A DNA stretch of 64,000 bases from contig CAZYCL010000001.1 in NCBI GenBank assembly GCA_964645795.1, positions 287,194 through 351,193 on the forward strand. Reading direction: 5' to 3'. Source of the DNA: an uncultured Planctomycetales bacterium. Lineage in GTDB: Bacteria > Omnitrophota > Gorgyraeia > Gygaellales > Profunditerraquicolaceae. Both the position numbers and the translations under genes were made by a program. Positions 9,666-59,209 of the stretch are shown in pieces; the stretch's first letter is position 1, and every line of letters starts with the position of its first letter. The notes beneath the pieces were generated by a model, which saw only the letters and a program-made list of their open reading frames with translations, was not told the origin of the DNA and ran no database searches.

Positions 9666-10472
9666 TTAAAACCCTGTAACTAATTTCCCCAGCCCAAGAG
9701 AAAGGTCAAAATACCTAAAGCATGCGAACGCAGACACCCAGAATAAAACAAAGATCGTCTCCCGCCATCCTATGCCCATGGGCCTGACGACGCGCATGCG
9801 CCCGTCAAAGCCGCGGCAGCACATCGCCAGGTAAATGCGCTCGGCCCGGTCAAGCGTGCGCAGCAGCAAATGATTTATCAGCGAGACAAAGACATTAAAG
9901 CGGACTGCCCCGCAGCCTGGCGAGCGCATCGTCCTTGCCCGCAGCATCCGTTCTGCTTCATCGGTCAAAACCCATATGTAGCGGTAAAAAAACAGGAGTT
10001 GCGTCACAAACGGCCGGGGTACGCCAAACTTCAACAGCGAATCGCAAACGGCGTTGAAACCGGTCAGGGCTATCAAAATAAAAGCTGCCGTTACGGTCAA
10101 GAAAAAACGTAGCAATATCGAAAAAAACGACACCCATCCCCCGGATACCTCCATGGGGCCGACCTGCATCAGTATGTGACTGTCCATAACGGGGTTGAAG
10201 ATGCCGACCAGTATCGCAAACGGAGATACGGCCAGTGTTTTTTTTAGAAGATAGCCTGCCGGCAGACCCGCGGCAGAGATCAGGAAAACCGGATAAATAA
10301 CATAAGGCGCCAATGCAAAAATCGAATACTTATCAAAAGAAACTACCGTAATGATGAATGCCAGGGTAGTGACGAGTTTGGCTCTCGGGTCCAGGCGATG
10401 CAAAAAACTGTCTTGGGCAGCCAATGTATCCATAAACCGGATATCGAAAAGATCCCTGCTGCCGATATTCAT
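9666..10472 (-). CDS. cbiQ: ECF transporter transmembrane component CbiQ
   Basis: 268-aa polytopic protein between cbiM and cbiO, with CbiQ-like length and topology. Confidence 0.75.
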   Translation of the reverse strand: MNIGSRDLFDIRFMDTLAAQDSFLHRLDPRAKLVTTLAFIITVVSFDKYSIFALAPYVIYPVFLISAAGLPAGYLLKKTLAVSPFAILVGIFNPVMDSHILMQVGPMEVSGGWVSFFSILLRFFLTVTAAFILIALTGFNAVCDSLLKFGVPRPFVTQLLFFYRYIWVLTDEAERMLRARTMRSPGCGAVRFNVFVSLINHLLLRTLDRAERIYLAMCCRGFDGRMRVVRPMGIGWRETIFVLFWVSAFACFRYFDLSLGLGKLVTGF

Positions 10473-41092: not shown

Positions 41093-42307
41093 CTATTTAT
41101 TATCGCGCATATATTTTTGCTTTGCTTCCAGGATGTTCAAAGTCTTTTCATCCATATATCCTGCGCAGTAAAGGGTATTGAATGTATGGTAGATGCGGTT
41201 ACTGCGCAGCATATGAGCCAACCCGTTAAATCCGTATTTGAGGAGGATATTTTCCAGATCGTTAAATGCAAATTTATCGGCCCTTGCCGCCAAATAGTCC
41301 TTCTCAAAGTACCGGCCGGGCCCCCAAGAGGTTACCTGAGGCTTGAACCTGTCCTTGCTCTGTTGAAAGGTATAGACTGAAGAAAATTTCGGAGGATAAA
41401 ATGACTCTGTTTTCTTCGCTGCATCATAGACTTCGCTTAAAAATCTGGTGTAAGCGTTCTGCTCGATGCCATCCAGCCTGGATCCTTCTTTTTCAAGGAT
41501 GTCCAGGCACATTAACCCGTATTCAAACTGGTTAAAGACCATCGAGATAAAAGCAAGCTTGGCAAGCATCTCAGGGCGCTTCTGGTTGCTGCCTATGCCC
41601 CTGTTTTTCCTGCCCTTTTTTATTTTCTTCAGAAAAAGGGCATCCGCGCTGCACTGAAAGCCTTCCGCGCGCAGCCCTATGGGCTTACGACAGGGAGAGT
41701 AGTCGTCGTGCATTGAAGTAAATTTGACAAAATAAAAATCTTTTGCCTGCATCAGCTTCATTATATCGCTGAATAGCTTCTGGTTCTTCCGCAGGGGAGA
41801 GAATGCCACTTCGGCGATGACGCCAAGTATACAGTCATCCAGAAGACGGGATGCGCCCTTTAATATCGGATATTCGTAGCCCTCCACGTCGAGGGACAAG
41901 AAATCCGGCGCGGGGACGCCGGTCTTGCCTTCTCGATAAAGCTGGTCAAGGGTGACCAGCTTTACGGGTATGGTCTCCATCGGCTTCATGATATCGGACA
42001 TTAAGCATTCGTAGCTTACGTAAAAGAGGGAAAAATCGGCAAACTCCTCGTTTAGAGGCAAAAGCGAGCTGTTGTAGGTGTCGTAGGTGATAAAAAACTT
42101 GGATGTAGAGGATTTTTCGCCGATGCAGTATGGTAAAACATGGGTGGTGGACTGAGGCTGCGAACTGTATGCCTGTTTTATCTGCTCGATACAGGCAGCA
42201 TCGGCATCGTAAATGACGTTGATAAGATCCGCCTCAAAGGCAGAAAGGCACGGAAACCCCTTTGAGCCGCCTCTGCCGCCGATGTGGTGCAAAGATAATT
42301 TTGACAT
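41093..42307 (-). CDS. FkbM family methyltransferase domain protein
   Basis: LSLDVEGYEYPILKGA matches the FkbM signature. 404 aa. Confidence 0.5.
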   Translation of the reverse strand: MSKLSLHHIGGRGGSKGFPCLSAFEADLINVIYDADAACIEQIKQAYSSQPQSTTHVLPYCIGEKSSTSKFFITYDTYNSSLLPLNEEFADFSLFYVSYECLMSDIMKPMETIPVKLVTLDQLYREGKTGVPAPDFLSLDVEGYEYPILKGASRLLDDCILGVIAEVAFSPLRKNQKLFSDIMKLMQAKDFYFVKFTSMHDDYSPCRKPIGLRAEGFQCSADALFLKKIKKGRKNRGIGSNQKRPEMLAKLAFISMVFNQFEYGLMCLDILEKEGSRLDGIEQNAYTRFLSEVYDAAKKTESFYPPKFSSVYTFQQSKDRFKPQVTSWGPGRYFEKDYLAARADKFAFNDLENILLKYGFNGLAHMLRSNRIYHTFNTLYCAGYMDEKTLNILEAKQKYMRDNK

Positions 42308-42382: not shown

Positions 42383-43219
42383 CTATTCAACCATGTAAAT
42401 ATTCTTTCCGCATCTGCATGCCTGGCATACTGCTTCCTTGAAAACCCCTTTTCGCAGGTCATTCCTCAGCTTCCTGTAATAAGGCTTGTTCCAGATATCT
42501 AGCAATCTTTCATTCTTTATATTGCCCAATTTAACGGTATTCAGATAATCCTCGCAGCAGAATATCACATCCCCATTACAATTGATGTAAATAAGGCTTA
42601 GGGGGAACATGCAGTTTTTGGGACGCCCCGCTTCGCCGTCCAACTTTATTAACCCGCCCCTGCTGCCGATATATTCCAGGCTGTTGTAAATTAACTGGAC
42701 GCCTTCATTGCCGTGCTCTTGCCGGTATTTTTTCAGCTCGGCGATTGTCGCCAATTCTTCCTTTTGATGCAGGGAAACGGCAAATGACCTAACCCCTGCC
42801 CTTACCAGCTTGTCATACCTTTCGATTGTCAGAAAATCACCGTTGGTAGCGATACTGATAACGCAGCCGGGCAGCTTTGCCCTGGCATATTCGATAAACC
42901 CCTCCAGGCGTTGGTCCAATAAAGGTTCGTTATAAAAATCAGGGTGGATCTGCCCTACCCACTTAAGCCCGGATAATTCGTCTATGACCTTGCGAAACAA
43001 ATCCGGCTCCATTTTATCTTTGCCGGTAACAAGCCTCCTGTCATATTTTGAGTTAGGGCAATACGGGCATTTTCTATTACAGGCAGAAGAGGTTTCGATG
43101 CCGATACTGGAAAATATGTTGAAAATGTCGTGCCTCAGGAAGGATAATTTAAATTTGATTGCCAGCGGCAAGCGTTGCTTGAGAAAATTGAATAAAGGGA
43201 AAACAAGATTATTCTTCAA
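42383..43219 (-). CDS. Radical SAM protein with a C-terminal Cys-rich (SPASM-like) region
   Basis: CNRKCPYC (CxxxCxxC) and C-terminal CNGDVIFCC...CQACRC. Confidence 0.65.
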   Translation of the reverse strand: MKNNLVFPLFNFLKQRLPLAIKFKLSFLRHDIFNIFSSIGIETSSACNRKCPYCPNSKYDRRLVTGKDKMEPDLFRKVIDELSGLKWVGQIHPDFYNEPLLDQRLEGFIEYARAKLPGCVISIATNGDFLTIERYDKLVRAGVRSFAVSLHQKEELATIAELKKYRQEHGNEGVQLIYNSLEYIGSRGGLIKLDGEAGRPKNCMFPLSLIYINCNGDVIFCCEDYLNTVKLGNIKNERLLDIWNKPYYRKLRNDLRKGVFKEAVCQACRCGKNIYMVE

Positions 43220-44609: not shown

Positions 44610-45617
44610 ATGGCTAAGATAAATAAGCTACTTAGAACGTTACCAGTGCTAATATATTGGATTTTTGCATTATTGGTACTTTTTGAAATAGGAGTTCGGT
44701 TTTGGGGTTATTCCCAACATTATATTTACGACCCAATCTATAAAGAATTTGACAAGAGTAAAGATTTGCCTTATATCCATAAGCCAAATCTTAAAAATGC
44801 TCGAGGGCGCGGATTGACTAATGTCAATACGGATGTTCTGGGTCTGCGTTCAAAAATGCCAGGTATTAAATATGGACCGAAGAAAGAGAATGATTATAGG
44901 ATCGTAATATTAGGCGATTCAGTGGCCTTCGGAGAAGGCGTAAAGATGGAGGAAGACACTTTTGCTCAGGTGCTTGAAGATATTCTTAACACAAAACAAC
45001 ATTCCTTTGTCGTTAAGGTATTCAACTATGGAGTTTCGGCGTACAGCATTAAGAATATGGTGGCAACCTTACAATATAGAGCGCTGGATGTAGAGCCGGA
45101 TTTGGTCCTTATGACGGTCATTCCTGACGACTTTCGGATTGACAGAACGGTTGTTGTAGACAAGTTCGGGTACACCTTTAATAAACGTTTATCCGGTTTC
45201 ATGAATAAGGATTCCGCTATAAAGCGTTTATTACGGGAAGTGCATTTAGTATATCTTCTTAGGGATATAAAGCATTTTTACATTGATCGGATCCGAAATA
45301 CAAAAGACATGGGCCCATCAGATTCCTTGGATGATTATGCTTATATTGTAAAATTTAAAGAGATCTCAACGCAGCATGGCTTGCTTTACGCGGTAGTGCT
45401 TTTACCAGATCTCGCTGAAGATTTTAAAAGTTTGTTAGCAAAATTAAATCAAGATGAAATAGTCTCTATCGACCTCTCGTTTCTTAAGAATGAATTTACT
45501 CCTCGTGAATTTATGGCGAGTAAGTTTGATAGACATCCTTCGGCAATTGTTCATAGAAGAATAGCCAGAATGCTTTCGGAATACATTATAAGCAATCAAT
45601 TGATACCCAAGAAATAG
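44610..45617 (+). CDS. Membrane-anchored SGNH/GDSL hydrolase-family protein (paralogue 2, AT-rich)
   Basis: LGDSVAFGEG (block I) and DRHPS (DxxH). N-terminal TM. Confidence 0.6.
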   Translation: MAKINKLLRTLPVLIYWIFALLVLFEIGVRFWGYSQHYIYDPIYKEFDKSKDLPYIHKPNLKNARGRGLTNVNTDVLGLRSKMPGIKYGPKKENDYRIVILGDSVAFGEGVKMEEDTFAQVLEDILNTKQHSFVVKVFNYGVSAYSIKNMVATLQYRALDVEPDLVLMTVIPDDFRIDRTVVVDKFGYTFNKRLSGFMNKDSAIKRLLREVHLVYLLRDIKHFYIDRIRNTKDMGPSDSLDDYAYIVKFKEISTQHGLLYAVVLLPDLAEDFKSLLAKLNQDEIVSIDLSFLKNEFTPREFMASKFDRHPSAIVHRRIARMLSEYIISNQLIPKK

Positions 45618-46200: not shown

Positions 46201-47160
46201 ATGATGTTACAAAATAAAAATAGGGCAGATAATTTAAGAAAGAAAATACTTTTGGTGCTGTTAGGGGTTGTTGCGGCGTTGATTCTTGTTGAATTGTTAT
46301 TGCGGATATGCGGTTTTGTCTACAAAAGCATCTATAGTCCGAAGCAAAAAAATTTAGGTAATTATACAATATTTTGCCTGGGCGAATCTACTACATGGGG
46401 AGTTGGAGCAAGGAATCCATCATTGCAGAGTTATCCGAGGCAGTTGGAAGGAAAATTAGCTGTCATGTATAAGAGTTTGGGTATAAAAGTCATTTATGAT
46501 CAAACAATAGGCCAGAATACTTCCGAAATTTCAAATAAACTGCCGTTTTATATTGAAAAATACCGCCCGCAAATAGTAATAATCATGTGCGGCGCTAATA
46601 ATTTCTGGAACTTAGATAAAAGTAACATATTGTTATTTAATAAGAATAAATATATTGCCGATACCGCATTGAATATTTTAATGTTTTTGGATAAATTCAG
46701 GATTTGGAAATTATATAAATGGCTGAGTTTGAATTCTGGTTTTTATAAACATAGATGGAATTATTATTATCCGTATAGTTACCCCTGGTATGTTTTGTTG
46801 AGAGAAATGGAGCGGGAATATAACGGGATGGGTATTTTTTATAAAATTGCGGACTACGATATAAGAGAAATGGTAAAAACCTGCAAACGAAACGGGATTA
46901 AGCTGATTATCTGTAATTATCCGGGCGGGGTAGGCGCGCCCCTTGATTCTTTACAAAAGAAGATTGCTACGGATTTTCAAGTTGTTTTCGTAGACAATAA
47001 GAAAATTTTTGGTGAACTTCCTAATGCCAAAGATTATTTTTCCACAGACAAGTGGCATCCTAATGAAGAGGGATATGGGATTTTGGCTGAAAATGTATAT
47101 GATGCTATAGTCAAAAACAAGCTGTTGCAAAAAAGCAACAATGGCAATACCCTCCCGTAG
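46201..47160 (+). CDS. SGNH hydrolase-like protein (paralogue 3; block I reads GES not GDS)
   Basis: FCLGESTTWGVG and DKWHPNEEG (DxxH). N-terminal TM. AT-rich. Confidence 0.5.
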   Translation: MMLQNKNRADNLRKKILLVLLGVVAALILVELLLRICGFVYKSIYSPKQKNLGNYTIFCLGESTTWGVGARNPSLQSYPRQLEGKLAVMYKSLGIKVIYDQTIGQNTSEISNKLPFYIEKYRPQIVIIMCGANNFWNLDKSNILLFNKNKYIADTALNILMFLDKFRIWKLYKWLSLNSGFYKHRWNYYYPYSYPWYVLLREMEREYNGMGIFYKIADYDIREMVKTCKRNGIKLIICNYPGGVGAPLDSLQKKIATDFQVVFVDNKKIFGELPNAKDYFSTDKWHPNEEGYGILAENVYDAIVKNKLLQKSNNGNTLP

Positions 47161-47606: not shown

Positions 47607-48788
47607 ATGGTAAAAATGAGTAAAAAGATCAATGTGCTCCATGTAGCGACCCTGAACCGGCCGATCAGGCAGGACCTGGGTTACGGCCCTATCGAAACGG
47701 TTATTTATAACATCGATAAGGGCATCCACGCATTGGGCTACCGTTCGATCGTCGCCTGTTCCGGCGATTCCCGCGTTGCCGGAGAACAGTATACCACTAT
47801 TGAAAAAAGCTTCAGTGAATACTGGAGCGAAAATACGCGCGCGCAGCAACGAAATATGCGCAGGCATCTTGCCATGTCGCTTGGAAGGGCAAAAAAAGGC
47901 GACATCGATATCATCCACATGCATGATGCCATTATGGCAGAATATATTTTTAAGGGGGTCTTTAAAAGCCCGGTCCCTATCGTAATGACGCTCCATGTGC
48001 CTGCTGAGGAAAAAGGATCGTTCAAGCGCTGGAATGAATCGCTCGCTTCTTCTTCCGCCGCGTATTTTGTCCCGATCAGCGAATACCAGAGAAGGCAGCA
48101 TCACGGGCTGGTCAACGCGCAGAAGGTCATCCATCACGGCATCGATGTAGAGGGCTACCCGTTCAAAAGCGGCCCCGCAAAACACGACTATCTGTTCTCG
48201 ATCGGCAGGATCACTCAGGATAAAGGCCAGGATAAAGCCATCGAGATAGCGAAGAAAACCGGCTCCCGGCTCATACTTGCCGGCAATGTCCAGAACAAAG
48301 CAAAAGACCGGGCATTTTTCAAAAGATTAAATAAGTCCATCGACCTTGTGACTGACGCCGGAAAGCCTTTTACCGGCAGCGATTATTATGAGAAGGTAAT
48401 GAAACCCATCCTGGATTCGGGCAAGCAGATCATCTATATCGGCGAAGTTGACAGGGACCAGAAAAAACTGTGGTACCTGCACGCGCGCATGACCCTCTTC
48501 CCTATTCAGTGGGGCGAACCGTTCGGGCTCGTGCTGATCGAATCCATGGCCTGCGGCACTCCGGTGGCCGCCTTTCGCAAGGGCTCGGTGTCCGAAATCG
48601 TCATTCACAAAAAAACAGGTTTTGTCGTGGATTCGATAGATGAGATGGCTGAGGCCGCGAGGGCAAGCCGCCTTATCGATCCCAACGACTGCCGCAGGCA
48701 CGTTGAAGATAATTTCTCGATTGCCGTTATGGCCGGGAAATATTCACAACTATACCGGTGGATCTTGACGAAAGGACTCCATGCCTAA
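47607..48788 (+). CDS. Glycosyltransferase family 4 (GT-B, RfaB-like)
   Basis: Conserved EPFGLVLIESMACGTPV (EX7E region) and the GT4 C-terminal domain. Confidence 0.75.
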   Translation: MVKMSKKINVLHVATLNRPIRQDLGYGPIETVIYNIDKGIHALGYRSIVACSGDSRVAGEQYTTIEKSFSEYWSENTRAQQRNMRRHLAMSLGRAKKGDIDIIHMHDAIMAEYIFKGVFKSPVPIVMTLHVPAEEKGSFKRWNESLASSSAAYFVPISEYQRRQHHGLVNAQKVIHHGIDVEGYPFKSGPAKHDYLFSIGRITQDKGQDKAIEIAKKTGSRLILAGNVQNKAKDRAFFKRLNKSIDLVTDAGKPFTGSDYYEKVMKPILDSGKQIIYIGEVDRDQKKLWYLHARMTLFPIQWGEPFGLVLIESMACGTPVAAFRKGSVSEIVIHKKTGFVVDSIDEMAEAARASRLIDPNDCRRHVEDNFSIAVMAGKYSQLYRWILTKGLHA

Positions 48789-50742
48789 AGACATACCGGT
48801 AAGTAACGGGTCTTTTCTTTTGAATTTCGATCCGGATTATCAGATCCGGGATGTTTATTTCCCTTTTATCGGCCAGGAAAACCATTCCAGCGGCCATCCC
48901 TTCCGCTTCGGCGTATGGGCTGATGGCAAATATTCATGGATGGGCCCGGATTGGGAAAAAGACCTGAGATACCATAACGAGAGCCTGGTCACGGATGTCT
49001 TCTTAAAAAATGAGGCCCTGGGCCTGGAGCTGCGCTGCTCGGATGTGGTGGACCTGGATCTTAACATCTACGTTAAAAAGATCGAGGTAACCAACCTGCA
49101 TGATAAGGCGCGGCAGGTCCGGCTTTTTTTCAATCATGATTTTTACCTTTATGGCAACGATGTCGGAGGCACGGCCTATTTTGATCCGCGCAGCTGTTCG
49201 ATCATCCACTACAAGATGCACCGGTATTTTCTTATCAGCTGCCGGGAGCATGGCAATTGGGGCGTCAAACATTTTACCTGCGGCAGGAGAGGGAACCCGG
49301 AAAGCCCAACTGCCGGCAAAGACGGCGAAAACGGGGAGCTTGACGGCAATCCGTCCGCGTGGGGCTCTCCGCATTCTACCCTCGGCATTTGGCTGGAATT
49401 GCCGGCCAAGGGGAAAACAGACGCCTATTACTGGATAGCGGCGGGCACTACCTATCCGGAAGTCGCAAAGCTTAATTTGGAGGTCCATCAAAGATCGCCG
49501 GAAGAGCTCATCAGGCGCTCGTCAAAATATTGGACGACCTGGGTGCATAAACAAACCCTTAAAATAAAGGGGCTGCCAAAATCGATAACCGATGTTTTCA
49601 GCCGCAGCCTCCTTATCCTGAGAACGCAGATCGACAACCATGGCGCCATTATCGCCGCCAACGATTCCGATATCGTCCGTTTCGGAAAAGATACTTATTC
49701 GTATATGTGGGGCCGGGACGGCGCTTTTGTCGCCGCCGCTTTAGCGAAGGCCGGGTACTCCCATGTATGCATGAAATATTTTGATTTTTGCGCCCGCGTC
49801 CTGTCAGAAGAGGGCTATTTATTCCAGCATTATAACCCGGACGGGTCCCTTGCCAGCAATTGGCACGCCTGGCTGGTTGACGGTAAAGAGATCCTTCCCA
49901 TCCAGGAAGACTCGACCGCTTTGACCCTCTGGGCGCTCTGGATACACTACCAGAGCCTGAAAGACGTGGAATTTATCCGACCCCTCTACGGCACGCTCAT
50001 TAAAAAAGCCGCGGATTTCCTGGTCGGTTACCGGGACCCTCAAACCCTGCTGCCGCTGCCTTCCTATGACCTTTGGGAAGAACGTTACGCGCTGCACGCC
50101 TATACGGCTGCGTCCGTGGTCGCAGGCCTCAGGGCCGCAGCTGATTTTGCCAAGCTCTTTCAGGATACCTCCCTGGCGAAAAAGTATGACCTTGTGGCGG
50201 ACGAAATTGCGGCAGGCGTCAGCCAACACCTTTATCATGCCGGACTAAAGCGATTTGCCCGTTCGGGCTCCAGGGTAAACGGTGGTTACAAGCTTGATGA
50301 GGTCATCGATATCAGCCTGTTAAGATTGGCGTCTTTTGGGGTCCTAGACCCCAAAGATCCGCGGATGATCGAAACAGCCAGAGCCGTACGCCAGCAGCTG
50401 TGGCTTAAGACTCCTGTTGAAGGCTGCGCCAGATACCAGGGCGATATCTATCAGCGAGTGGAGAACAGCCCAAAAGACATCCCCGGCAATCCCTGGTTTA
50501 TCGCAACCCTTTGGCTGGCGGAATACTTCATCGACCTGGCAGAGGACCAAGGACAGCTTCAAGCAACCCTTCCTTACCTTGAGTGGTGCGGGAAAAACGC
50601 GCTCCCTTCCGGCGTGCTTGCCGAGCAGGTGCATCCGGTAAACGGCTCACCTCTTTGCGTCTCGCCTCTTACCTGGAGCCATTCCGCTTTTGTCTGGACC
50701 GTCCTGCGCTACACTGAAAAGGACAGGGCGCTTAAAAAATAA
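48781..50742 (+). CDS. Glycoside hydrolase family 15-like protein (glucoamylase/glucodextranase/trehalase clan)
   Basis: (alpha/alpha)6 catalytic-domain motifs YSYMWGRDGAF, LWEERYALHAYT, NPWFIATLWLAEY. 653 aa with an N-terminal beta domain. Confidence 0.7.
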   Translation: MPKDIPVSNGSFLLNFDPDYQIRDVYFPFIGQENHSSGHPFRFGVWADGKYSWMGPDWEKDLRYHNESLVTDVFLKNEALGLELRCSDVVDLDLNIYVKKIEVTNLHDKARQVRLFFNHDFYLYGNDVGGTAYFDPRSCSIIHYKMHRYFLISCREHGNWGVKHFTCGRRGNPESPTAGKDGENGELDGNPSAWGSPHSTLGIWLELPAKGKTDAYYWIAAGTTYPEVAKLNLEVHQRSPEELIRRSSKYWTTWVHKQTLKIKGLPKSITDVFSRSLLILRTQIDNHGAIIAANDSDIVRFGKDTYSYMWGRDGAFVAAALAKAGYSHVCMKYFDFCARVLSEEGYLFQHYNPDGSLASNWHAWLVDGKEILPIQEDSTALTLWALWIHYQSLKDVEFIRPLYGTLIKKAADFLVGYRDPQTLLPLPSYDLWEERYALHAYTAASVVAGLRAAADFAKLFQDTSLAKKYDLVADEIAAGVSQHLYHAGLKRFARSGSRVNGGYKLDEVIDISLLRLASFGVLDPKDPRMIETARAVRQQLWLKTPVEGCARYQGDIYQRVENSPKDIPGNPWFIATLWLAEYFIDLAEDQGQLQATLPYLEWCGKNALPSGVLAEQVHPVNGSPLCVSPLTWSHSAFVWTVLRYTEKDRALKK

Positions 50743-51120: not shown

Positions 51121-51753
51121 CTAAAGGCGAAAGCTTTTGAACGCCTTCTCGATCCTTGATAAAGACGCGGGATCTATGTAAATTTCCCTTTTCTCCAAAG
51201 GGCCGCCCGCATAGGCCTCCCTTACCTCGTAATGCAGGATCTTTAAAACGAACGCGCCGTTAAGAAAATAAGTGACGTGCAAACAGCTGCGGCGGCCTTT
51301 CTCTTCTTTCTCTTCCAACCAACTCTGGGCCTTTACCATTCGCTCATACGCATCCCGGGCGCTGGACGCGTCATAATACCTTTGCGCGATCAGATTTACT
51401 GAGTCGACACAAAGGTTTGCGGTTTCAACGGGTTCTTTTCGGGAGGACGCGTGCGCGCCGGGCCGGGAAATAGCCATATCTTGCCCGCGTTTCCTCATGG
51501 CCTCTCTTGTTGCCTGCCTTGCTTGAGCGTACCGGCTGTCTTGAAGCTCACGCTGCCGGCTTCTTTCCAGCGCGTCTTCCATGCCCTGGGGATAAGACGG
51601 GCCTTGCTCTGTTGCTGCAAGCCCTGCCGCGCGAAAATGCCGCAAGAGAGAGTCGATTGTTGTCCCGGATGCGGCTTGAAGAAGGCCGGCCTGGGCGCAC
51701 AATGAGAAGAATGCCGAGATAAAGATTAATATCTTACGAATATCCCGCTTCAT
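51121..51753 (-). CDS. Secreted hypothetical protein (start moved to the Met with a GGAGGG SD)
   Basis: Signal peptide MKRDIRKILIFISAFFSLCAQA. The ORF-track start 51774 would contain the SD. Confidence 0.4.
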   Translation of the reverse strand: MKRDIRKILIFISAFFSLCAQAGLLQAASGTTIDSLLRHFRAAGLAATEQGPSYPQGMEDALERSRQRELQDSRYAQARQATREAMRKRGQDMAISRPGAHASSRKEPVETANLCVDSVNLIAQRYYDASSARDAYERMVKAQSWLEEKEEKGRRSCLHVTYFLNGAFVLKILHYEVREAYAGGPLEKREIYIDPASLSRIEKAFKSFRL

Positions 51754-51834: not shown

Positions 51835-52953
51835 TTAAGGAGCCTGCCTGCTCCCCAACCACTCCTCTACCATTGGATAAAGGGCCTCTGCCGCAAAAAT
51901 GTGGCCTGCGGGGGTGTAATGGTCATAATCCATGAAATACCTTTTCCAGACCCTCTCTCTCCCATCCACCCCTGCTTCTCTGCGGGCCTCATCTTCAAGC
52001 AGTCCTAAAAGCTCCAGGTACCCCATATCATTGCGCCGGGCAAAATCCCGCAGCATCTCTTGCGTGCGGCTCTGGGCCGGACCGAAGAACTGGAAACGCG
52101 CCGGCGACACCATCAGTATGCAGCCGATCCCGTTTTCCCGGCATAGCCTCACCTCTTTCTGCAGCCATTGAAAACATTCTTGCCGGGCGCTGCGCAACTT
52201 CTTGTCATCTAAGGCGAGGCTGTCCGCCTTCTCGCACAATTCAACCTCCCGCTGCAGCGCTTCATAAGGCAGGGCCTTGTCGCCGAACACCCCGAACCTG
52301 ATCTTAGCCGCCGCTCTGCTCAAGAACAGGTAAAACCTGCTTTTCTCTCTTAAGAAATAATGCCAGCGGCACCAACCAGTCATCTCATGGTAATCGCTCT
52401 TACTGCCGCCGTACTTGCGGCAAACCAGGTATGGCTCTATGACGTCGTTGAGCGCAAATTGAATGATCACGATATCGGGGCTAAAGGCCAGGCCGCGCTT
52501 CAGGTCGATGTATTCCTGAAAAGGGGAGTTTCCCGGCACAGCCGTATTGATGACCTCAAAACGGGATTTTTTATTTTTCCTGTTCAAAAGCCGCTCAAGG
52601 ACCCGGGGGTAAGCGTCATCTGCGCCAACGGCGTGACCGAAACTGATGGAATCCCCCACGACCAGTATCCGGACAACGCCCCTGCCCTTCTCGATGGGGA
52701 TCTGCGGGCTCCTGTAGCCGAAAGAGTTTGTCTCTACCGGCTTGCCGGCGAACTCGCCGTCTTTGAGGTTCTTTTTCAAACGGTATATCTTTTCTTCGTC
52801 GTATTCAAATATGAATTTCCCGGGATCCTGCGCCGGATGATACCAAAGGCGGCAGGCAAACTCCGCCGCGCCGAAGAATACGGCCAGAAAGAATACGGCC
52901 AACGCGATATTGCCGCAGATATTGCTTATCCGTAACCTGCGCCCCTTAACCAT
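51835..52953 (-). CDS. Membrane-anchored SGNH/GDSL hydrolase-family protein (paralogue 4). Its start overlaps the upstream stop by 8 nt.
   Basis: VGDSISFGHAVG and DHYTPAGH. TM anchor NIALAVFFLAVFF. Confidence 0.6.
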   Translation of the reverse strand: MVKGRRLRISNICGNIALAVFFLAVFFGAAEFACRLWYHPAQDPGKFIFEYDEEKIYRLKKNLKDGEFAGKPVETNSFGYRSPQIPIEKGRGVVRILVVGDSISFGHAVGADDAYPRVLERLLNRKNKKSRFEVINTAVPGNSPFQEYIDLKRGLAFSPDIVIIQFALNDVIEPYLVCRKYGGSKSDYHEMTGWCRWHYFLREKSRFYLFLSRAAAKIRFGVFGDKALPYEALQREVELCEKADSLALDDKKLRSARQECFQWLQKEVRLCRENGIGCILMVSPARFQFFGPAQSRTQEMLRDFARRNDMGYLELLGLLEDEARREAGVDGRERVWKRYFMDYDHYTPAGHIFAAEALYPMVEEWLGSRQAP

Positions 52954-54250
52954 GGAGCGCCGGATTCCCGGAAATGAATTTGCCGACATTCAGAATACAC
53001 TCGTCCATGTTTAAATAATCCCAATTACCGCTCCTGCCTACAGTAAAGATATTATGTCCGTTGAGGATACCGCAAACCTCTCCCCGGGCCTGCTCAAGGC
53101 CTACCGTGGGTATAGGATAGGTGTATTTTACCAATCTTGTCTCGGTTAAAGCGATATCATCACAGGAAGCCACAATGCCAAGGCGAATAAGCTCCTGAAC
53201 CACCAGCTCGCTGATCTCTTTTTCGCTCCTGCCCGGAGAATCTTTCTTACGGGTCACCTCCGCTACTAACGCCGGCGCAAACTCCGGGCTGAAATTATGC
53301 ATCATGGTGAAGCGGTAAAATATCTCGTCCTCCTTGAAGAATGCCCAATGGCAATCCGCAAACATCTTGAAACCGCAGCCCCTTTTAAGTCCGACCAGGG
53401 TAAAAAAGGTGTCGTTCCAGCTAAACAGCCTCTCTTTTCCTTTAAGCCCGTCAAGCGGGAGCTTTCCGAAGAGCTCTACGAGCGGGATCGTGGAGAAGAT
53501 TACATCCGCCTCATAGCTTTTATCTTTGGCCATTACCAGCCACCTGACGCCTTTTTTCTCCAGCCTTTTCACCTCGGAATCCAGCATTATCCTGTCCCGG
53601 ATGCCCTGCGTCAGGTGTTCGATAAAGCCCTGTATGCCCTCTCTCGGATAAATGAACCTGGCCTGATGCTTCCTGCCGGAGTTCTTTAACCCCAGAAGAA
53701 ACAGGATAAAATCCAGGGTCGATGACGGCTCGATTTTAGAAGTCACCAGCCTGCTGGATATGCGCGAAAGCGGGCAGTCCCATATCTTCTGATTATAAGG
53801 CGTCATGAAATGCCGCGCGATCCCCGGGCCCAGATAGCGATCGATCCAATCCTGAAGACTAAGACATTGACTGCCGCAGCGCGAGCGTCCGAAGAAATAA
53901 CCACGCAGACACTCCAGCTTATCCTCCAAAGGCAGCTCCCGGATCCCCAGCTCAAAAGGGTAGCGAAGGAGGCGTTTTCCGCCATTCCTGTCCGAATGCA
54001 GGATCCTGACCTTCCTGTCCAGAACCGAATAAGCCAGCGGCAACGAATGGAAATAACCCGCCATCTCCTTGTGCCGGCTGTACAAGGCGTGAACGGAGAA
54101 ATCCCAATGGTACTGCCCGGTCTTATTGGTCCGGCACAATCCTCCGGCCTGAGGCTCTTTCTCAAGGATAATGAAATCCTTGCCCATATCCTTGAGCCTC
54201 CTGCCCAGCTCTATACCGGTGACTCCGGCGCCCAGTATGGCGAACTTCAT
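52946..54250 (-). CDS. FAD-dependent oxidoreductase of the UDP-galactopyranose mutase (Glf)/amine-oxidase-like superfamily
   Basis: N-terminal ILGAGVTGIE FAD fold. C-terminal GRSGNWDYLNMDECI resembles the Glf C-terminus. Confidence 0.55.
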   Translation of the reverse strand: MKFAILGAGVTGIELGRRLKDMGKDFIILEKEPQAGGLCRTNKTGQYHWDFSVHALYSRHKEMAGYFHSLPLAYSVLDRKVRILHSDRNGGKRLLRYPFELGIRELPLEDKLECLRGYFFGRSRCGSQCLSLQDWIDRYLGPGIARHFMTPYNQKIWDCPLSRISSRLVTSKIEPSSTLDFILFLLGLKNSGRKHQARFIYPREGIQGFIEHLTQGIRDRIMLDSEVKRLEKKGVRWLVMAKDKSYEADVIFSTIPLVELFGKLPLDGLKGKERLFSWNDTFFTLVGLKRGCGFKMFADCHWAFFKEDEIFYRFTMMHNFSPEFAPALVAEVTRKKDSPGRSEKEISELVVQELIRLGIVASCDDIALTETRLVKYTYPIPTVGLEQARGEVCGILNGHNIFTVGRSGNWDYLNMDECILNVGKFISGNPALHG

Positions 54251-55035
54251 CTTTTATTGCCCCGCAACTCGCTGCTTAATCTCCAAAGCCCAAACATGAC
54301 CTTAAACATGATCCGGGGCAGGCCAACGGCAGAAAAAATCCTGCTTTTTCCCTTAGCCGGCCTGGCGCGGTGCGAGACGCAAACCTCTCCGATTGCGAAA
54401 CCCGCCCGGCGGGCCCTCAGCATAAACTCCGTCATCACGCAATAGTCAAGGAGCCGGACATCGTTTAGCACCGCATCGATCACTTCTTTTCTTATCAGCT
54501 TGAACCCGGAATTGATGTCCCTCATCCCGATCCCGAATAGCGCGCGGACCAGGAAGTTATACGCCGCGGAAATTATCAGCCGGTGCCGGGGGTCAAAACG
54601 CCGGCACCTTCGGCCGCTTACGACATCTTTATCTTCCATGGCCGCCAGCAGCTTAAAGAAATCGCCCGGATCGTGCTGGCCGTCCGAATCGCTAAAGAAT
54701 ACAAGCTCGCCATCCGCCGCCTTTAATAGATCCTTGAATGCCCGGGTATAACCCTTTCGCACACCTGAGCTGACCATGACAAAAGGTATCTTTTTATTCA
54801 AGGCGACAAGCACCTCTTTTGTCCCATCGGTACTGCCGTCCTCGGCGATCAATAACCTTGAACCGTTGTATTTCTTGACTACCTTTTCGTAGAAATCCTC
54901 CAGGGTTTGGGCGATGGTGGCGGCCTCGTTATAAACAGGGATAACCGCGGTAAGGCTTAAACTCCCGCCCTGAGCGCTATTTTTTATCTGCATAGGTATA
55001 ATCCCAGTACGAAACTTCCTGGCGGCCGCGGACAA
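54247..55035 (-). CDS. GT2 glycosyltransferase, polyprenyl-phosphate sugar synthase (DPM1/ArnC-like). The true start may be Met 54993.
   Basis: VIPVYNEA, EDGSTDGT and DSDGQHDP (DXD) motifs. Confidence 0.75.
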   Translation of the reverse strand: MSAAARKFRTGIIPMQIKNSAQGGSLSLTAVIPVYNEAATIAQTLEDFYEKVVKKYNGSRLLIAEDGSTDGTKEVLVALNKKIPFVMVSSGVRKGYTRAFKDLLKAADGELVFFSDSDGQHDPGDFFKLLAAMEDKDVVSGRRCRRFDPRHRLIISAAYNFLVRALFGIGMRDINSGFKLIRKEVIDAVLNDVRLLDYCVMTEFMLRARRAGFAIGEVCVSHRARPAKGKSRIFSAVGLPRIMFKVMFGLWRLSSELRGNKR

Positions 55036-57112
55036 GATCCTTAATCACTATCCTGCCGCCTATAAAATCCACATCCACTATGGCTTCCGGTCGGAAGCCG
55101 GCGAAGTAAGGCAGCGTCGATAGCTTTCTGGAGCGGTTCTCCACATAGACGTGTTCAACGCGCATTGCCTTGTTACCGTCCTTGAGTATGACCAACAAAG
55201 GATACTCCCACCAGTCCTTCTTTAAAACCAGCCCGACGTTCTTATAACCTTTTTCCCTTATATAACGATCAACCCTGCGGTATTCGTTTTCGATACCGGG
55301 CGATAATAAGAAATATTGGCTGAACCGCGTTCCGGAGAATATATTATCTTTACCCGCAAGCCTCCTGGTCCCGTTGAAAAACACCCAGGGCAACGCAAGA
55401 ATGAACAGCGTGACGCAGATGATGACCGGCGCCTTCAAATTCGAACGATAACGCAGCGCCAGCAACGCTAAGATGAAAAAACCCGCAAAGACATTAAAGG
55501 TGCCGCCAAAGAGTAAACAGGCGATCCTATCCAACGGGACAACCGGACCGTTACGCATCAACGCTTCGGTCAGGACCCCGCCGAAGTAAAGATACGCCAG
55601 GAATACCCCTGCAAGCAGCATAAATGTTTTCAGCGCTCTTCGGAATGCGGTTTTAGCGCGCAAAAATCCGGTGCCCTCTCCTGCCGGGGATAGCGCCGCT
55701 GCTACCGGAGCAGACCAGAGCACAAATAAAGGCAGGTGCAGACGGCTCTGCCACGGCGTCCATTTCAACAGCAGAGAAAATAACATAAATGCGCACGTCA
55801 TAGCCAGGAAATAGTGCTTCAAGCAAGCCGCTTGCCCCTTACGCAAGATCGCGATCCCCGCCGCCATTATTAATAACAGGTGCGCAAAATTACCGGCATG
55901 ATCCTCATAAAAGGAGAGCTTTATGTAATACTGCCAATAGGCAAAGGTGGTGCGCGGATCGCTTATATCCACGCCAAGGAGCCGGTGGACAAAGATCAAC
56001 GCCTTTTCCGTGAAGGCATTGAGAGCATCACCGGGCATCCCCAGGTGCAGGCCGATCTGTTTTAAAACGCTGGAGGCAAAGAGTGGCGGGGTAAAGGCGC
56101 TGTTAAGCTCCCTGCCGGTCCCGGCCAGGATGTTCCCATAGAGGAAGAGATTGCGCGTATAATGCCCCAGGTTAATAATGAGGGCGACCAGGAGCATGAC
56201 AACCACAGCCCTCCATAACCGCGGCCTGTCCGCAAAACGAGTAAATGAAGACAACCCAAGCCAGGCCATGAACGCAAGGGCGCAGATATAGGCCTGATGC
56301 TTGGTAAGAACAGCCAAACCAAGCGCTGCCCCGGCCAATAAGGCGTAGGTAACGCGCGGCGAACTTTTTAACAGCAGAAGAGTATAAACAAAACAAACCA
56401 ACCAGAAGCTTACGGCATAGTCATTAAGCGTGCCCGAAGACTGCAGGATGCCCATAGGTATGGTGGCAACCACTACGCCGGCAAAAAGCTGCCCCTGGCT
56501 TGCGGCCCCAAGCCGGCGCGCGATAAGCGATACGCCGATGATGCTGCCTATCATGCTCAGCCACTGGACGAAGCCGGCGAAACGGTCAGAGCCGCTTAGT
56601 ATCTGCAGATGCAGGATAGCAAACTCCGCCAAGGGATTACGGTGCAACTGCCTTTCGACATGCGTAGGATAATGCGCTATATTGCGGTCCTGTATCCAAT
56701 GGGATACCCTGGCCATATGATACGCCATTGAATCCCAATCATTAGGGGCACAGGTATAAGCGATGAGCGCCGTGGCGGCAACGATAAAAACTAAACAGCC
56801 AAGCAGCAAGACCGAGGATGGGCGTAGTTTAGAAGCTTTGAACCGGATAGCGGGTTTTTGCCTGCGGGCCAATATTGCCAGGAAAACGGACAATAACAAA
56901 CAGAGCGCGCCCCACGATACGGATAAACCGGGCAAGGTTATCAGGTTGAATAAACTCAAGAGCTCGGTCATCGCAGCCAACAAACACCCGAATGTCACGG
57001 CGCAAAACAGGAGGTTTTCGCGCAGGGATAACGCAGCGCCGCGGCCCGAGCTAAATGCGTTAAGTATCATGAAGATCAACAGAAAACAAAACAGTGGTAA
57101 GATCAATAACAT
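54977..57112 (-). CDS. GT-C fold membrane glycosyltransferase (ArnT/PMT, GT39/GT83-like), 711 aa
   Basis: About 13 TM helices and a C-terminal soluble domain. It is coupled to the GT2 gene. Confidence 0.55.
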   Translation of the reverse strand: MLLILPLFCFLLIFMILNAFSSGRGAALSLRENLLFCAVTFGCLLAAMTELLSLFNLITLPGLSVSWGALCLLLSVFLAILARRQKPAIRFKASKLRPSSVLLLGCLVFIVAATALIAYTCAPNDWDSMAYHMARVSHWIQDRNIAHYPTHVERQLHRNPLAEFAILHLQILSGSDRFAGFVQWLSMIGSIIGVSLIARRLGAASQGQLFAGVVVATIPMGILQSSGTLNDYAVSFWLVCFVYTLLLLKSSPRVTYALLAGAALGLAVLTKHQAYICALAFMAWLGLSSFTRFADRPRLWRAVVVMLLVALIINLGHYTRNLFLYGNILAGTGRELNSAFTPPLFASSVLKQIGLHLGMPGDALNAFTEKALIFVHRLLGVDISDPRTTFAYWQYYIKLSFYEDHAGNFAHLLLIMAAGIAILRKGQAACLKHYFLAMTCAFMLFSLLLKWTPWQSRLHLPLFVLWSAPVAAALSPAGEGTGFLRAKTAFRRALKTFMLLAGVFLAYLYFGGVLTEALMRNGPVVPLDRIACLLFGGTFNVFAGFFILALLALRYRSNLKAPVIICVTLFILALPWVFFNGTRRLAGKDNIFSGTRFSQYFLLSPGIENEYRRVDRYIREKGYKNVGLVLKKDWWEYPLLVILKDGNKAMRVEHVYVENRSRKLSTLPYFAGFRPEAIVDVDFIGGRIVIKDLVRGRQEVSYWDYTYADKK

Positions 57113-57194
57113 TATCGCTCCACGCCCGCCAGGTACGCCGCGCTAACCGAGCGGCACCCTGAATAAACACGCCGGCCCGGGTTTGCCGGCCGAT

Positions 57195-58754
57195 TCATTG
57201 TTGCCTGACGTAAACATGCCATCCGGCTAACTCCTCGATATCTATTCTTTTTGAGAACTCCGGCAAATAGCGCAGCACGCTTGTTGACCTCTGCAGGGCC
57301 TCATTTTCCGGCAGCACGACCATCGCCAGGCGCGGGGGAATATGCCTGAAGAACTGCTCCCTGCCCACCCGGTCACCGGCCAGCTCCCTATCCGCTATGG
57401 CGTCCGAAAAATGATAGGCCTTGCCTTCAACTGCCAGATGCAGCAGCGGATTTCCGGGAAAATAAACCTCTCCCTTATGCCGCTCAAGGAACCGGCAGGC
57501 CGGCGCATAGGGCTCCCTTAGCGACATTGAATCATCATAAGAATGGCTGAACAAATAAGGTAGGTTCACCAGAAGGAAAGCCGCGACCATTATCCTGGCC
57601 AGCGCAGGCATGCCCCGTCCTCCCTTGTCTGCAGTATCGGAAATAACGCCGGCCAAGGCGGCTGAGGCAGCGATGAAAAAATAGTAAGTGATAAAACTAA
57701 GGGTATTCAGCGCGCCTCCGGCCTTCAGCTTTGTCAAAACCGACACAGGCATCAAGGCCAGGCTTAAAAACAAGAATATCAGCCAACGGTCTTGCCGCAG
57801 CATCTGCCTGATCCCGAAAGCCTTGCCGCAAAAAATAAGCCCTGCCAAGGCCAAAGAGATAAACACGAATAGCCCGCAGCCAAGCTCCCTGGTCAAAAGG
57901 TATCTTAAGGGGTAGGTAAAGTAAGGGCTGAAGGGATGTTTCATAGGCATGAGGAACAGGTTATAAAACATGGCTTCCGGATCGAAGAAGCTGAAAAACA
58001 CCAAAGCTGTGACGGCGCTCCAGGCCAGAAGATAGATTACATAGCGCAAGAAAACTTTTCTGCCCCAAGCCAAATATAAGTAAAACGGCAGGGCCAGGAT
58101 CCCCGCCAGCATTACCTGTTTAGTCCAGCAGGCCAATACAGCCAGAAGGCTTGAAGCCGCCAGGAGAACCCTATCCCGGTCGTCACGGAGCCGCAAAAGA
58201 GCTAATCCCGCCAGCGCCCCGAGCCCCAAAGCCGGGGCATCGGCGTGGATGGAAAGGAAGGTGTCTTTGAGCGAATCCGCCCCGGAGGCAAAACAAAAAA
58301 AGACAAAAAAAGCGGCCCAGGCCGTAACCCGCCTGTGCGGACCGCCGGATGCCGAGAAAATAATGAATAAAACCGGCAGCAATGCAAAGCCTGCGGATAA
58401 CCAAAGGCCGCAGATCAACGCCCCCTTTAGAGAAGGAAAGATAACCGCGGGCAGATAGGCTGCCGCTGCTAACGGCCCGTAGATGTGGCCGGAGATCACG
58501 CCCTCGCCAGGCAGGGTATAAAGCGCAAAGCCCTTTGCCAGCATGAACGACGGAGCCAGCCTGCAGCAGTTCCATTGCGAAAGGCTATATTGCAGTGATA
58601 TCCGGGAGACGATAAAGAGAGCCGCGGCAAACCCCATGAGGATATTCGTAAAAACCAGCAGCTTCACCGGGAACTCGCAACGGGAGAACTTGAGGGGGAT
58701 ATAAATCGAAAGCGCTAAAGCGATGAGGAAATAGCAGGATATGAAGAAAAGCAT
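57195..58754 (-). CDS. Large polytopic membrane protein, possibly a second GT-C-type transferase
   Basis: 519 aa, about 12 TM helices and a C-terminal soluble domain. It is the first gene of the operon. Confidence 0.4.
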   Translation of the reverse strand: MLFFISCYFLIALALSIYIPLKFSRCEFPVKLLVFTNILMGFAAALFIVSRISLQYSLSQWNCCRLAPSFMLAKGFALYTLPGEGVISGHIYGPLAAAAYLPAVIFPSLKGALICGLWLSAGFALLPVLFIIFSASGGPHRRVTAWAAFFVFFCFASGADSLKDTFLSIHADAPALGLGALAGLALLRLRDDRDRVLLAASSLLAVLACWTKQVMLAGILALPFYLYLAWGRKVFLRYVIYLLAWSAVTALVFFSFFDPEAMFYNLFLMPMKHPFSPYFTYPLRYLLTRELGCGLFVFISLALAGLIFCGKAFGIRQMLRQDRWLIFLFLSLALMPVSVLTKLKAGGALNTLSFITYYFFIAASAALAGVISDTADKGGRGMPALARIMVAAFLLVNLPYLFSHSYDDSMSLREPYAPACRFLERHKGEVYFPGNPLLHLAVEGKAYHFSDAIADRELAGDRVGREQFFRHIPPRLAMVVLPENEALQRSTSVLRYLPEFSKRIDIEELAGWHVYVRQQ

Positions 58755-58879: not shown

Positions 58880-59209
58880 TTAAACCCTGCAGCCGCAGTT
58901 CTTATTACGCAATATCTCGGCCTGTCTCTTTGGGGAATCGACAAATTCAGATTGTTTCCTGGCGCCCAGGGCAAACCTTTTCTCAAGCCTGCTGTTATGC
59001 CGATAACCTCTCCTGAGCAGCTCTTTAACAAGCAAGCCGTGCCTTGAATACAGGGCTGCAAGCTTGCCCTTCCATCGCAGGGTTTCCGGATGCCGGCAAT
59101 AGCCCTTTTTGTCCTTTGTCAAGACGCTCCATACCGCGTGCACCTCCCTGTGCTCTCCCAACAGGTGATTGCGGCATAGCTTCTCAGGCGCAATATCCCA
59201 GACCCTCAT
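58880..59209 (-). CDS. Pyrimidine dimer DNA glycosylase (T4 endonuclease V/Pdg-like) family protein
   Basis: MRVWDIAPEKLCRNHLLGEHRE...GYCRHPETLRW resembles the MRLWSLHPKYL...HPQ N-terminal region of Pdg-like proteins. Confidence 0.45.
   Translation of the reverse strand: MRVWDIAPEKLCRNHLLGEHREVHAVWSVLTKDKKGYCRHPETLRWKGKLAALYSRHGLLVKELLRRGYRHNSRLEKRFALGARKQSEFVDSPKRQAEILRNKNCGCRV

Follow-up and report, generated by a model that had tools for sequence, protein, structure and literature searches.

What would a bacterium make with a polyprenyl-phosphate glycosyltransferase, a relative of UDP-galactopyranose mutase (UGM) and two large membrane proteins encoded side by side? The question is raised by a five-gene cluster at positions 51835-58754 of the window analysed here, the whole 64-kb stretch of contig CAZYCL010000001.1 from an uncultured bacterium of the Omnitrophota. 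We give about an even chance to the reading that its products form a glycosylation system that works outside the cytoplasm with a lipid carrier, and whose donor sugar is probably a furanose. The interval is filled by five co-directional open reading frames (ORFs) on the minus strand, called G1 to G5 in transcription order (lengths in nucleotides, nt, or amino acids, aa):

G1, 57195..58754, minus strand: 519-aa polytopic membrane protein, predicted to be a divergent glycosyltransferase of the GT-C fold
G1-G2 spacer, 57113..57194, minus strand: 82 nt with the G2 ribosome-binding site GGAG and a GC-rich hairpin
G2, 54977..57112, minus strand: 711-aa predicted GT-C glycosyltransferase, ArnT/Emb-like
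G3, 54247..54993, minus strand: 248-aa family 2 glycosyltransferase (GT2), predicted polyprenyl-phosphate glycosyltransferase of the DPM1/GtrB/ArnC type
G4, 52946..54250, minus strand: 434-aa flavoprotein, UGM-like, probably a nucleoside diphosphate (NDP)-sugar pyranose/furanose mutase
G5, 51835..52953, minus strand: 372-aa SGNH/GDSL enzyme with an N-terminal signal-anchor helix
Possible sixth gene, 51121..51753, minus strand: 210-aa predicted secreted protein, 81 nt downstream of G5

On identical contigs, the publicly available gene calls have products of the same lengths, 519, 711, 248, 434 and 372 aa. Each gene has many homologues (370 matches for G4, more than 1000 for G2 and 1790 clusters for the G1 family), so we take G1 to G5 to be real genes rather than chance ORFs. 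The lengths of G3 and G5 are counted from ATG; the longest G3 ORF begins at a TTG at 55035 and the longest G5 ORF at 52989.

The first-pass annotation described five genes that all overlap by 4-17 nt. The five minus-strand genes stand, and three of the junctions, read from the sequence, fall in that range: G2 and G3 overlap by 17 nt (ATGCAGATAAAAAATAG), G3 and G4 by 4 nt (ATGA), and G4 and G5 by 8 nt (ATGGTTAA). The fourth does not. G1 stops at 57195 and is separated from G2 by an 82-nt spacer (57113-57194), the extent of which is fixed because an in-frame TAG at 57145-57143 rules out an earlier G2 start. The spacer contains a GGAG Shine-Dalgarno sequence 6 nt before the G2 ATG. Its hairpin shows no excess stability over shuffled sequence (z = -0.07), and promoter-like and terminator-like sites in the region, the hairpin among the latter, are not enriched over shuffles.

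The flavoprotein G4 and its partner glycosyltransferase G3

From its sequence we assign G4 to the UGM superfamily, where it appears to belong to a bacterial sister group of the eukaryote-type UGMs. As a single sequence it matches the structurally solved UGMs of Aspergillus fumigatus (E = 1.8e-25) and Trypanosoma cruzi (E = 4.8e-22) in phmmer searches. A profile built from 26 family members matches eukaryote-type UGMs at E = 1.6e-73 (251 bits) over positions 2-429 of 436, a full-length homology to structurally solved, proven enzymes. The next families, amine oxidases, protoporphyrinogen oxidases and bacterial Glf, follow at about 1e-15 to 1e-11; the oxidase matches, at about 1e-15, lie mostly in the FAD-binding N-terminus, and bacterial UGMs match G4 at 3e-14 to 5e-11 in partial alignments only. 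The earlier call of a Glf-like flavoprotein thus holds, though the likeness is to the eukaryote type rather than to bacterial Glf.

Nearly all catalytic residues of the superfamily are present in G4. We mapped the contact residues of A. fumigatus UGM (AfUGM) onto the alignment of the 26 family members via Table 3 of PMC3624792 and the structure-based table of PMC3322874. The equivalents of AfUGM Y104, F106, Y162, N163, W167, W315, R327, Y419, R447, Y453 and N457 are invariant, and H54, the equivalent of H63 in the His loop, is kept in 24 of the 26 sequences. In G4 numbering R327 corresponds to R313, R447 to R406, Y419 to Y378, Y453 to Y412, N163 to N153, W167 to W157 and N457 to N414. In AfUGM R327 is essential, Y419 and Y453 contact the diphosphate, N163 and W167 the ribose, and N457 the sugar (PMC3624792, PMC3322874). 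The mobile-loop residue Arg182 is replaced by K172 (Lys in 18 family members, Arg in 8), and the R182K variant of AfUGM is still active (PMC3322874).

Other positions give G4 a mixed character. The Trp equivalent to W315 is a eukaryote-type feature absent from prokaryotic Glf, and the C-terminal Y-L-N-M-D motif is of the bacterial type. Asn207, which contacts the galactose C4-OH, is replaced by Q196, and the equivalents of Tyr317 and Tyr334 are F304 and F320, positions that are often Phe in the family. There is no predicted membrane segment. The function best supported for G4 is that of a mutase interconverting the pyranose and furanose forms of an NDP-sugar, with UDP-galactopyranose (UDP-Galp) as a plausible substrate. 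The family is found in Omnitrophota, Elusimicrobiota, Planctomycetota, Desulfovibrionales and bacteria of the candidate phyla radiation (CPR). Judged by these comparisons it is the closest bacterial relative of eukaryote-type UGMs, and so would bear on the origin of the eukaryotic enzyme.

G3 is predicted to be a polyprenyl-phosphate glycosyltransferase that is not the orthologue of any named enzyme. It matches Pfam Glycos_transf_2 (PF00535) with 86 bits; its best NCBIfam matches are PgfS (top), ArnC, AglJ, the Dol-P-hexose transferase and PpgS, and its matches in the Protein Data Bank (PDB) are the dolichyl-phosphate mannose synthase DPMS (5mlz, 2.8e-10) and ArnC. The motif FSDSDGQHDP is an extended DxDxQ, in which D102-S-D104-G-Q106 is invariant in 10 orthologues. 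This metal and diphosphate motif has been proposed as a hallmark of polyprenyl-phosphate glycosyltransferases (PMC10821137). The curated matches and the motif agree with the first-pass assignment of a GT2 of the DPM1/ArnC type.

In Omnitrophota the genes G3 and G4 form a conserved module, in many cases coupled in translation. When 185,579 species genomes were scanned for the G4 family, 388 relatives turned up, and the best 80 were analysed. The nearest homologues of G4 and G2 in named organisms come mostly from metagenome-assembled genomes of Candidatus Omnitrophota (41-54% identity); by this measure the window most likely derives from that phylum. G3 and G4 abut in eight other Omnitrophota-assigned or related loci (L004, L007, L008, L010, L012, L013, L014 and L035), and in a further one (L009) a single membrane protein with 12 transmembrane (TM) helices lies between them. 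Omnitrophica RBG_13_46_9 (L007) has all five families in the order G3-G4-G1-G2-SGNH-SGNH and is the only other locus, among those analysed, with orthologues of G1 and G2. At other loci two to five large polytopic proteins come after the pair, with PMT_2, DUF2298, DUF6044 or no Pfam model. Because G3-G4 is kept while the neighbouring polytopic proteins vary, it looks like a constant donor module whose GT-C partners can be exchanged.

The reciprocal test, in which metagenomes were scanned with G3 orthologues and top loci needed at least 1.4 kb on both flanks, also recovers the pair. A G4 homologue lies within 3.5 kb in six of the seven loci with the highest G3 scores and abuts G3 in four of the seven. 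Both gene orders are seen, and the association declines as G3 diverges (11 of 32 loci overall).

In four of the related loci (L010, L012, L013 and L035) a UbiA-family gene lies upstream of G3-G4, together with an SGNH gene and a further GT2 that has the DxDxQ motif. Of the UbiA genes, two were scanned (L010, 6327-7223; L012, 6298-7197); they score 241-243 bits with the decaprenyl-phosphate phosphoribosyltransferase model NF008977, the cutoff of which is 234. If these assignments are right, the presence of UbiA beside the module shows a lipid-linked-furanose theme in this lineage, and the four loci may make several lipid-linked donors side by side, a pentofuranose among them. The 64-kb window contains no UbiA homologue.

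The neighbours of G4 homologues in other phyla fit an enzyme predicted to make an unusual NDP-sugar for glycosyltransferases. A sugar nucleotidyltransferase abuts the G4 homologue in Woesebacteria. In Solidesulfovibrio alcoholivorans DSM 5433 (L024, 9983-11290) and in L016 the G4 homologue is flanked by Leloir enzymes of GT2/GT1 type. The Solidesulfovibrio protein is 42% identical to G4 and comes from a cultured organism, a possible genetic model for the family. Planctomycetota relatives of G4 (about 30% identity) have a 332-aa GT2 downstream of them in 15 loci (e.g., L050, 5040-6422; L076, 11334-12332), and in 10 Planctomycetota loci there are MATE-family transporters nearby. In Elusimicrobiota the neighbours are a methyltransferase and either Lnt or a GT2-Lnt fusion. 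Lnt follows the G4 homologue in L020 (11854-14658) and L005 (7598-9226); in L020 it is fused to an N-terminal GT2 and resembles the Lnt-PPM synthase fusion of Mycobacterium tuberculosis Ppm1. Lgt genes are nearby in both Elusimicrobiota and Planctomycetota loci.

The membrane glycosyltransferases and the SGNH enzyme

Model and sequence both point to G2 as an ArnT/Emb-like GT-C glycosyltransferase. It matches Pfam PMT_2 with 30.7 bits, above the gathering cutoff of 26.1, and its more than 1000 homologues are annotated as GT39 or as members of the ArnT family. About 13 TM helices are followed by a 132-aa C-terminal domain. The first large periplasmic loop, 60 residues long and preceded by a Lys/Arg-rich cytoplasmic loop, contains the motif PPNxWDSMxYHxxRxxHW, in which the acidic residue D127 is invariant in 34 sequences. 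The AlphaFold2 (AF2) model (pLDDT 83.3, pTM 0.87) has ArnT as its best Foldseek match (5f15; 6.6e-7, TM-score 0.60, 13% identity), followed by EmbB/EmbA/EmbC and then Pmt4, Pmt1/2, the oligosaccharyltransferase OST and AftB; nearly all top matches are GT-C enzymes. The family-model match, the predicted fold and the conserved acidic residue in that loop all agree with the first-pass call of a GT-C enzyme for the 711-aa protein.

We also tried the idea that the G2 family as a whole is specific for furanoses and rejected it, since in Nostoc, Magnetominusculus and another genome the G2 orthologues have no link to G3-G4. In one locus (L172) a G2 orthologue (8001-10145, 44% identity) stands directly after a 485-aa PRK07208-type flavoprotein (6510-7967) that shares only 24% identity with G4, a hint that the G4-type flavoprotein superfamily may be associated with G2-type GT-Cs more widely.

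G1, which had been called simply a membrane protein, is one, and its model suggests that it is another GT-C glycosyltransferase, though a highly divergent one, with about 11 TM helices and a 117-aa C-terminal domain. Searches of Pfam, NCBIfam and PDB sequences give no match even at E <= 10. A word-based search finds just 8 homologues and an exhaustive profile search 1790 clusters (50% identity); PMT_2 is matched weakly by 6 of 49 sampled family members. The AF2 model (pLDDT 79.2, pTM 0.83) was searched against the PDB with Foldseek, and its top 18 matches are all GT-C enzymes with a probability of 1.00, including ALG12 (4e-5), AglB, ArnT (TM-score 0.52), PglB, STT3, ALG9, AftD, PimE, Pmt4 and ALG3.

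Sequence links from G1 to GT-C enzymes are not significant, so it is the fold search that assigns G1 to this class. Comparing the profiles of the G1 and G2 families (hhalign) gives a probability of 3-4%, and PDB profile searches with both families are empty. The near-invariant residues H170-x-D172 and K212-Q213 of G1 lie at predicted periplasmic helix ends. In the profile comparison, the score of which is itself insignificant, D172 and K212 fall opposite D231 and K271, two invariant residues of G2 that are likewise 40 positions apart. Matches of the G2-family model to G1 relatives are weak, in a consistent register and suggestive only. Conserved motifs of the G1 family are RLAP, IYGPLxAxxYLP, HADAPALGLG and WTKQ, with YFPWNPL...AEGKLYHF in the C-terminal domain. 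A family member in Verrucomicrobia (L091) occurs among PMT_2, GT87, PMT, GT2 and DegT genes, beside prepilin-like genes. The first-pass annotation leaned on a flavoprotein that hits UGM and on large membrane proteins of GT-C type; both are found here.

G5 is, by its sequence features, a membrane-anchored SGNH enzyme, an esterase or an acyltransferase (sequence does not distinguish the two). It matches Pfam Lipase_GDSL_2 with 48.2 bits (cutoff 32.9) and has SGNH blocks I, II, III and V with an intact Ser-Asp-His triad, as the earlier naming of an SGNH hydrolase requires: G100-D101-S102 (with the catalytic Ser102), the N block (ALND) and D342-x-x-H345 are conserved in 10 paralogues and orthologues. 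All aligned paralogues and orthologues have an N-terminal TM helix. In G5 the N-terminus is positively charged and precedes a single TM helix (16-34), an arrangement that would place the catalytic domain on the periplasmic side. SGNH genes accompany G3-G4 in L007, L010, L012, L013 and L035; in L008 one lies about 1.25 kb from the module on the opposite strand, and in L009 there is a weak SGNH match about 1.1 kb downstream of G4. Three more membrane-anchored SGNH paralogues of G5 are encoded in the window (39869-41038, minus strand; 44610-45617, plus; 46201-47160, plus).

The sixth ORF has a GGAGG ribosome-binding site and a signal-peptide-like hydrophobic N-terminal helix, and may be co-transcribed with G5. 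Its 210-aa product has no Pfam or NCBIfam match, and its homologues occur only on contigs with the same locus (L001 and L003).

The proposed pathway and its rivals

We propose that G4 would convert an NDP-pyranose to the NDP-furanose in the cytoplasm, UDP-Galp being a plausible substrate. G3, coupled to G4, would then load the sugar onto polyprenyl phosphate and so pull the unfavourable mutase equilibrium forward. The polyprenyl-phosphate sugar would cross the membrane via a flippase, for which this locus offers no candidate gene, and G2 and G1 would transfer the sugar to an acceptor at the periplasmic face. The membrane-anchored G5 might then add O-acyl groups to the product or remove them. 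Family membership, active-site conservation and the conserved coupling argue for the first two steps, and fold and topology suggest the roles of G2, G1 and G5. The presence of two GT-Cs suggests two linkages, or a priming and an elongating step. The comparisons establish a family or fold for each protein, the conserved active sites, the coupling of the genes and the conserved G3-G4 module, whereas anything said on the substrate, the order of the mutase and loading steps, the furanose on the lipid, the acceptor and the role of G5 is inferred. The conserved adjacency of GT2 and mutase supports a furanose on the lipid, and the second-best structural match of G2, the Emb arabinofuranosyltransferases, are users of a lipid-linked furanose. 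More tentatively, with somewhat less than an even chance, we suggest an undescribed route in Omnitrophota and their relatives in which the UGM-like mutase and a dedicated GT2 make polyprenyl-phosphate galactofuranose (Galf) or a related furanose, which is attached or polymerised in the periplasm by divergent GT-Cs, those of the G1 family among them.

Several observations weigh against this proposal. Neither the operon nor the 64-kb window, the multi-TM ORFs of which were scanned with Pfam, contains a flippase of the GtrA, SMR, MATE or MprF type. The window has no homologue of MATE, of MprF-TM or of the small 4-TM neighbours of related loci, and no dedicated small flippase is encoded with the synthase and GT-C genes here. 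The spacer separates G1 from the other cluster genes, orthologues of G1 and G2 exist elsewhere without G3-G4, and many distant G3 relatives have no G4 neighbour. In the literature that could be searched no lipid-linked hexofuranose donor was found, and there was no mention of a Galf donor on undecaprenyl phosphate (Und-P), decaprenyl phosphate, dolichyl phosphate (Dol-P) or polyprenyl phosphate; the proposed donor is hence without precedent.

The family assignments of G3 and G4 have opposing evidence as well. G3 scores far under every NCBIfam equivalog cutoff (53 bits with the PgfS model, against 500). A crude hydropathy scan finds just one helix, hydrophobic or of the interface type (139-157), besides an amphipathic C-terminus, and none of the C-terminal TM helices of GtrB, ArnC and DPMS. 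Soluble or peripheral members of the polyprenyl-phosphate GT2 group exist, such as PpgS and the catalytic domain of Ppm1, so the missing helices do not exclude the function. For G4, Pfam GLF (PF03275) gives no match even at E <= 10, and TIGR00031 gives 26.6 bits against a cutoff of 303.75, over only about the first 170 residues. By these scores G4 is not a Glf equivalog. Eukaryote-type UGMs were outside that scan, none having been run against the Glf models, so a UGM-type activity of G4 is compatible with the failed models. The uracil-contacting Gln107 of AfUGM is replaced by a Glu that is invariant in the G4 family (E100), which may indicate a different nucleotide or binding mode; because of this change the nucleotide specificity of G4 is not fixed as uridine.

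The rival that survives best, unlikely in our judgement though a serious contender, is that G3 and G4 feed one glycan separately. G4 would supply UDP-Galf to cytoplasmic Leloir galactofuranosyltransferases with genes elsewhere, and G3 would load a pyranose (glucose, mannose or N-acetylglucosamine) onto the lipid, from which G2 and G1 would add side chains in the periplasm in the manner of Gtr systems; the lipid would then carry no furanose. G4 homologues do stand beside Leloir GT2/GT1-type enzymes in Solidesulfovibrio and L016, a GT4 and other glycan genes are nearby in the window, and all characterised enzymes of the GtrB/ArnC/DPMS type take, to our knowledge, pyranose donors. Against this, the operon contains no Leloir glycosyltransferase, and the ATGA coupling and the lineage-wide adjacency of G3 and G4, in either order, are hard to explain without a direct metabolic coupling. 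The adjacency is moreover specific to this GT2 subfamily, decaying as G3 diverges.

The next rivals concern the acceptor, not the donor chemistry, and we hold them improbable. The cluster would carry out either an ArnT-like modification of lipid A or the lipopolysaccharide (LPS) core, affecting charge and antimicrobial-peptide resistance, or a PMT-like protein O-glycosylation. The structure predicted for G2 is nearest to ArnT, its homologues are annotated as ArnT or GT39, the matches of G3 include ArnC, and the Pgf cluster of Streptococcus mutans has a similar gene content (PgfS, an epimerase and two membrane proteins). The likeness of G2 to ArnT is at the level of fold only, with 13% identity, and the cluster has no aminoarabinose genes of the ArnA, ArnB or ArnD type. 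The data point to no particular acceptor.

We consider it quite improbable that G4 is instead a redox flavoenzyme, similar to amine oxidases, protoporphyrinogen oxidases or desaturases, that oxidises a sugar or modifies the polyprenyl carrier. Annotation alone would favour this. The only Pfam domains on G4 are Amino_oxidase and NAD_binding_8, the nearest NCBIfam models are the uncharacterised PRK07208 models, and public databases name its relatives protoporphyrinogen oxidase or FAD-dependent oxidoreductase. The full-length UGM profile match stands against it, the oxidase matches being far weaker and mostly confined to the FAD-binding part, as does the invariance of UGM-specific substrate residues.

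A reversed order, in which G3 makes a polyprenyl-phosphate pyranose and G4 contracts the ring on the lipid, as DprE1/DprE2 act on decaprenyl-phosphate ribose, is very improbable: known pentofuranose pathways do tailor the sugar at the lipid-linked stage (PMC11127046, PMC11194591), the distant G4 paralogue of L172 lies directly upstream of a G2 orthologue without an adjacent GT2, and the uracil-binding Gln has become Glu, but the residues for uridine ribose and diphosphate (Y162, N163, W167, Y419, Y453 and R327) are invariant, G4 lacks a membrane segment, and a sugar nucleotidyltransferase abuts its homologue in Woesebacteria.

Genomic surroundings and known systems

Upstream of the cluster are genes for a pyrimidine-dimer glycosylase, an ABC-F protein, recR and dnaX, and the cluster is taken to be chromosomal because of them. 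The glycosylase, a 109-aa pyrimidine-dimer DNA glycosylase (58880-59209, minus strand; Pyr_excise, 2e-25), is encoded between the ABC-F gene and G1 and appears to be unrelated to the glycosylation genes. A stretch at about 42-48 kb of the window has a lower GC content (0.41-0.45, against about 0.52) and holds two of the three extra SGNH paralogues. Recorded with it are genes for an FkbM methyltransferase (41093-42307), a radical SAM/SPASM protein (42383-43219), a GT4 (47607-48788) and a GH15 enzyme (48781-50742). This stretch may be a variable glycan island. Near the start of the window (1748-3094, minus strand) is a gene for a 448-aa protein with 10 TM helices and a Wzy_C (O-antigen ligase/polymerase) domain, which shows that polysaccharide assembly functions are present in the same genome region.

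Every part of the cluster appears to be of a known enzyme type, and a mutase-derived route to a lipid-linked furanose appears not to have been described. Known extracytoplasmic furanosylation uses pentofuranoses derived from phosphoribosyl pyrophosphate (PRPP), as in mycobacterial arabinan, the D-arabinofuranose (D-Araf) of Pseudomonas pilin and the ribofuranose and xylofuranose (Ribf/Xylf) of Citrobacter O-antigen. We know of galactofuranose addition only from UDP-Galf by Leloir enzymes. If the reading is true, a module of mutase and polyprenyl-phosphate glycosyltransferase would be a second route to lipid-linked furanoses and would bring hexofuranoses within the scope of three-component glycosylation. 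A flavoprotein family that is widespread in bacteria and goes under the name protoporphyrinogen oxidase would be re-annotated as UGM-like, the nearest bacterial kin of eukaryotic UGMs, which are drug targets. The analysis also identifies a large putative GT-C family (about 1800 clusters) for which there is no existing model, and it gives a first handle on the envelope glycans of uncultured Omnitrophota.

G4 shares with the eukaryote-type UGMs of A. fumigatus, T. cruzi and Leishmania a full-length homology, the catalytic Arg, the His loop and the Tyr and Trp residues including W315. It is shorter (434 aa against about 480-510) and differs by Gln107 to Glu, Asn207 to Gln, Arg182 to Lys and the C-terminal Y-L-N-M-D motif. 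It is also bacterial, and its gene is coupled to that of a polyprenyl-phosphate glycosyltransferase; its mutase activity is a prediction from sequence.

The Pgf cluster of S. mutans consists of the GT2 PgfS, the epimerase PgfE and the membrane proteins PgfM1 and PgfM2. It thus has the same kind of content as the cluster described here: a GT2 of the polyprenyl-phosphate-sugar synthase type, a nucleotide-sugar modifier and two large membrane proteins. The modifier is a UGM-like mutase here and a 4-epimerase there, and G3 is not an orthologue of PgfS.

Three-component systems, such as GtrA/GtrB/GtrC and the Citrobacter youngae system of PPPRS, a MATE flippase and GT136 (PMC11127046), have in common with this cluster the cytoplasmic charging of polyprenyl phosphate and a periplasmic GT-C. 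MATE is the flippase family of the Citrobacter pentofuranose system, which with its relatives delivers furanoses and may include auxiliary tailoring enzymes; its furanose originates from PRPP via a UbiA-type phosphoribosyltransferase, and the paper mentions neither Galf nor mutases (PMC11127046). On the proposed reading the present cluster is a variant of three-component glycosylation in which a flavin mutase and a GT2 would derive the putative furanose from a nucleotide sugar. The cluster has no UbiA-type phosphoribosyltransferase. It encodes two predicted GT-Cs and an SGNH enzyme, and no GtrA, SMR or MATE gene was found in the window.

A decaprenyl-phosphate phosphoribosyltransferase starts the known lipid-linked pentofuranose pathways (PMC11127046, PMC11194591). 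Mycobacterial arabinan assembly (DPPR synthase, DprE1/E2 and Emb/Aft) and the TfpW system that adds D-Araf to the pilin of Pseudomonas aeruginosa use lipid-linked furanose donors and extracytoplasmic GT-Cs. The model of G2 matches EmbA/B/C next after ArnT, and related loci carry a UbiA protein similar to DPPR synthase; with Emb/Aft enzymes G1 and G2 have the fold alone in common (12-15% identity). The window has no homologues of UbiA, DprE1 or DprE2, and in their place we propose the donor chemistry of a mutase and a GT2. If true, the cluster would be an independent counterpart of arabinan assembly in mycobacteria, based on nucleotide-sugar rather than PRPP chemistry.

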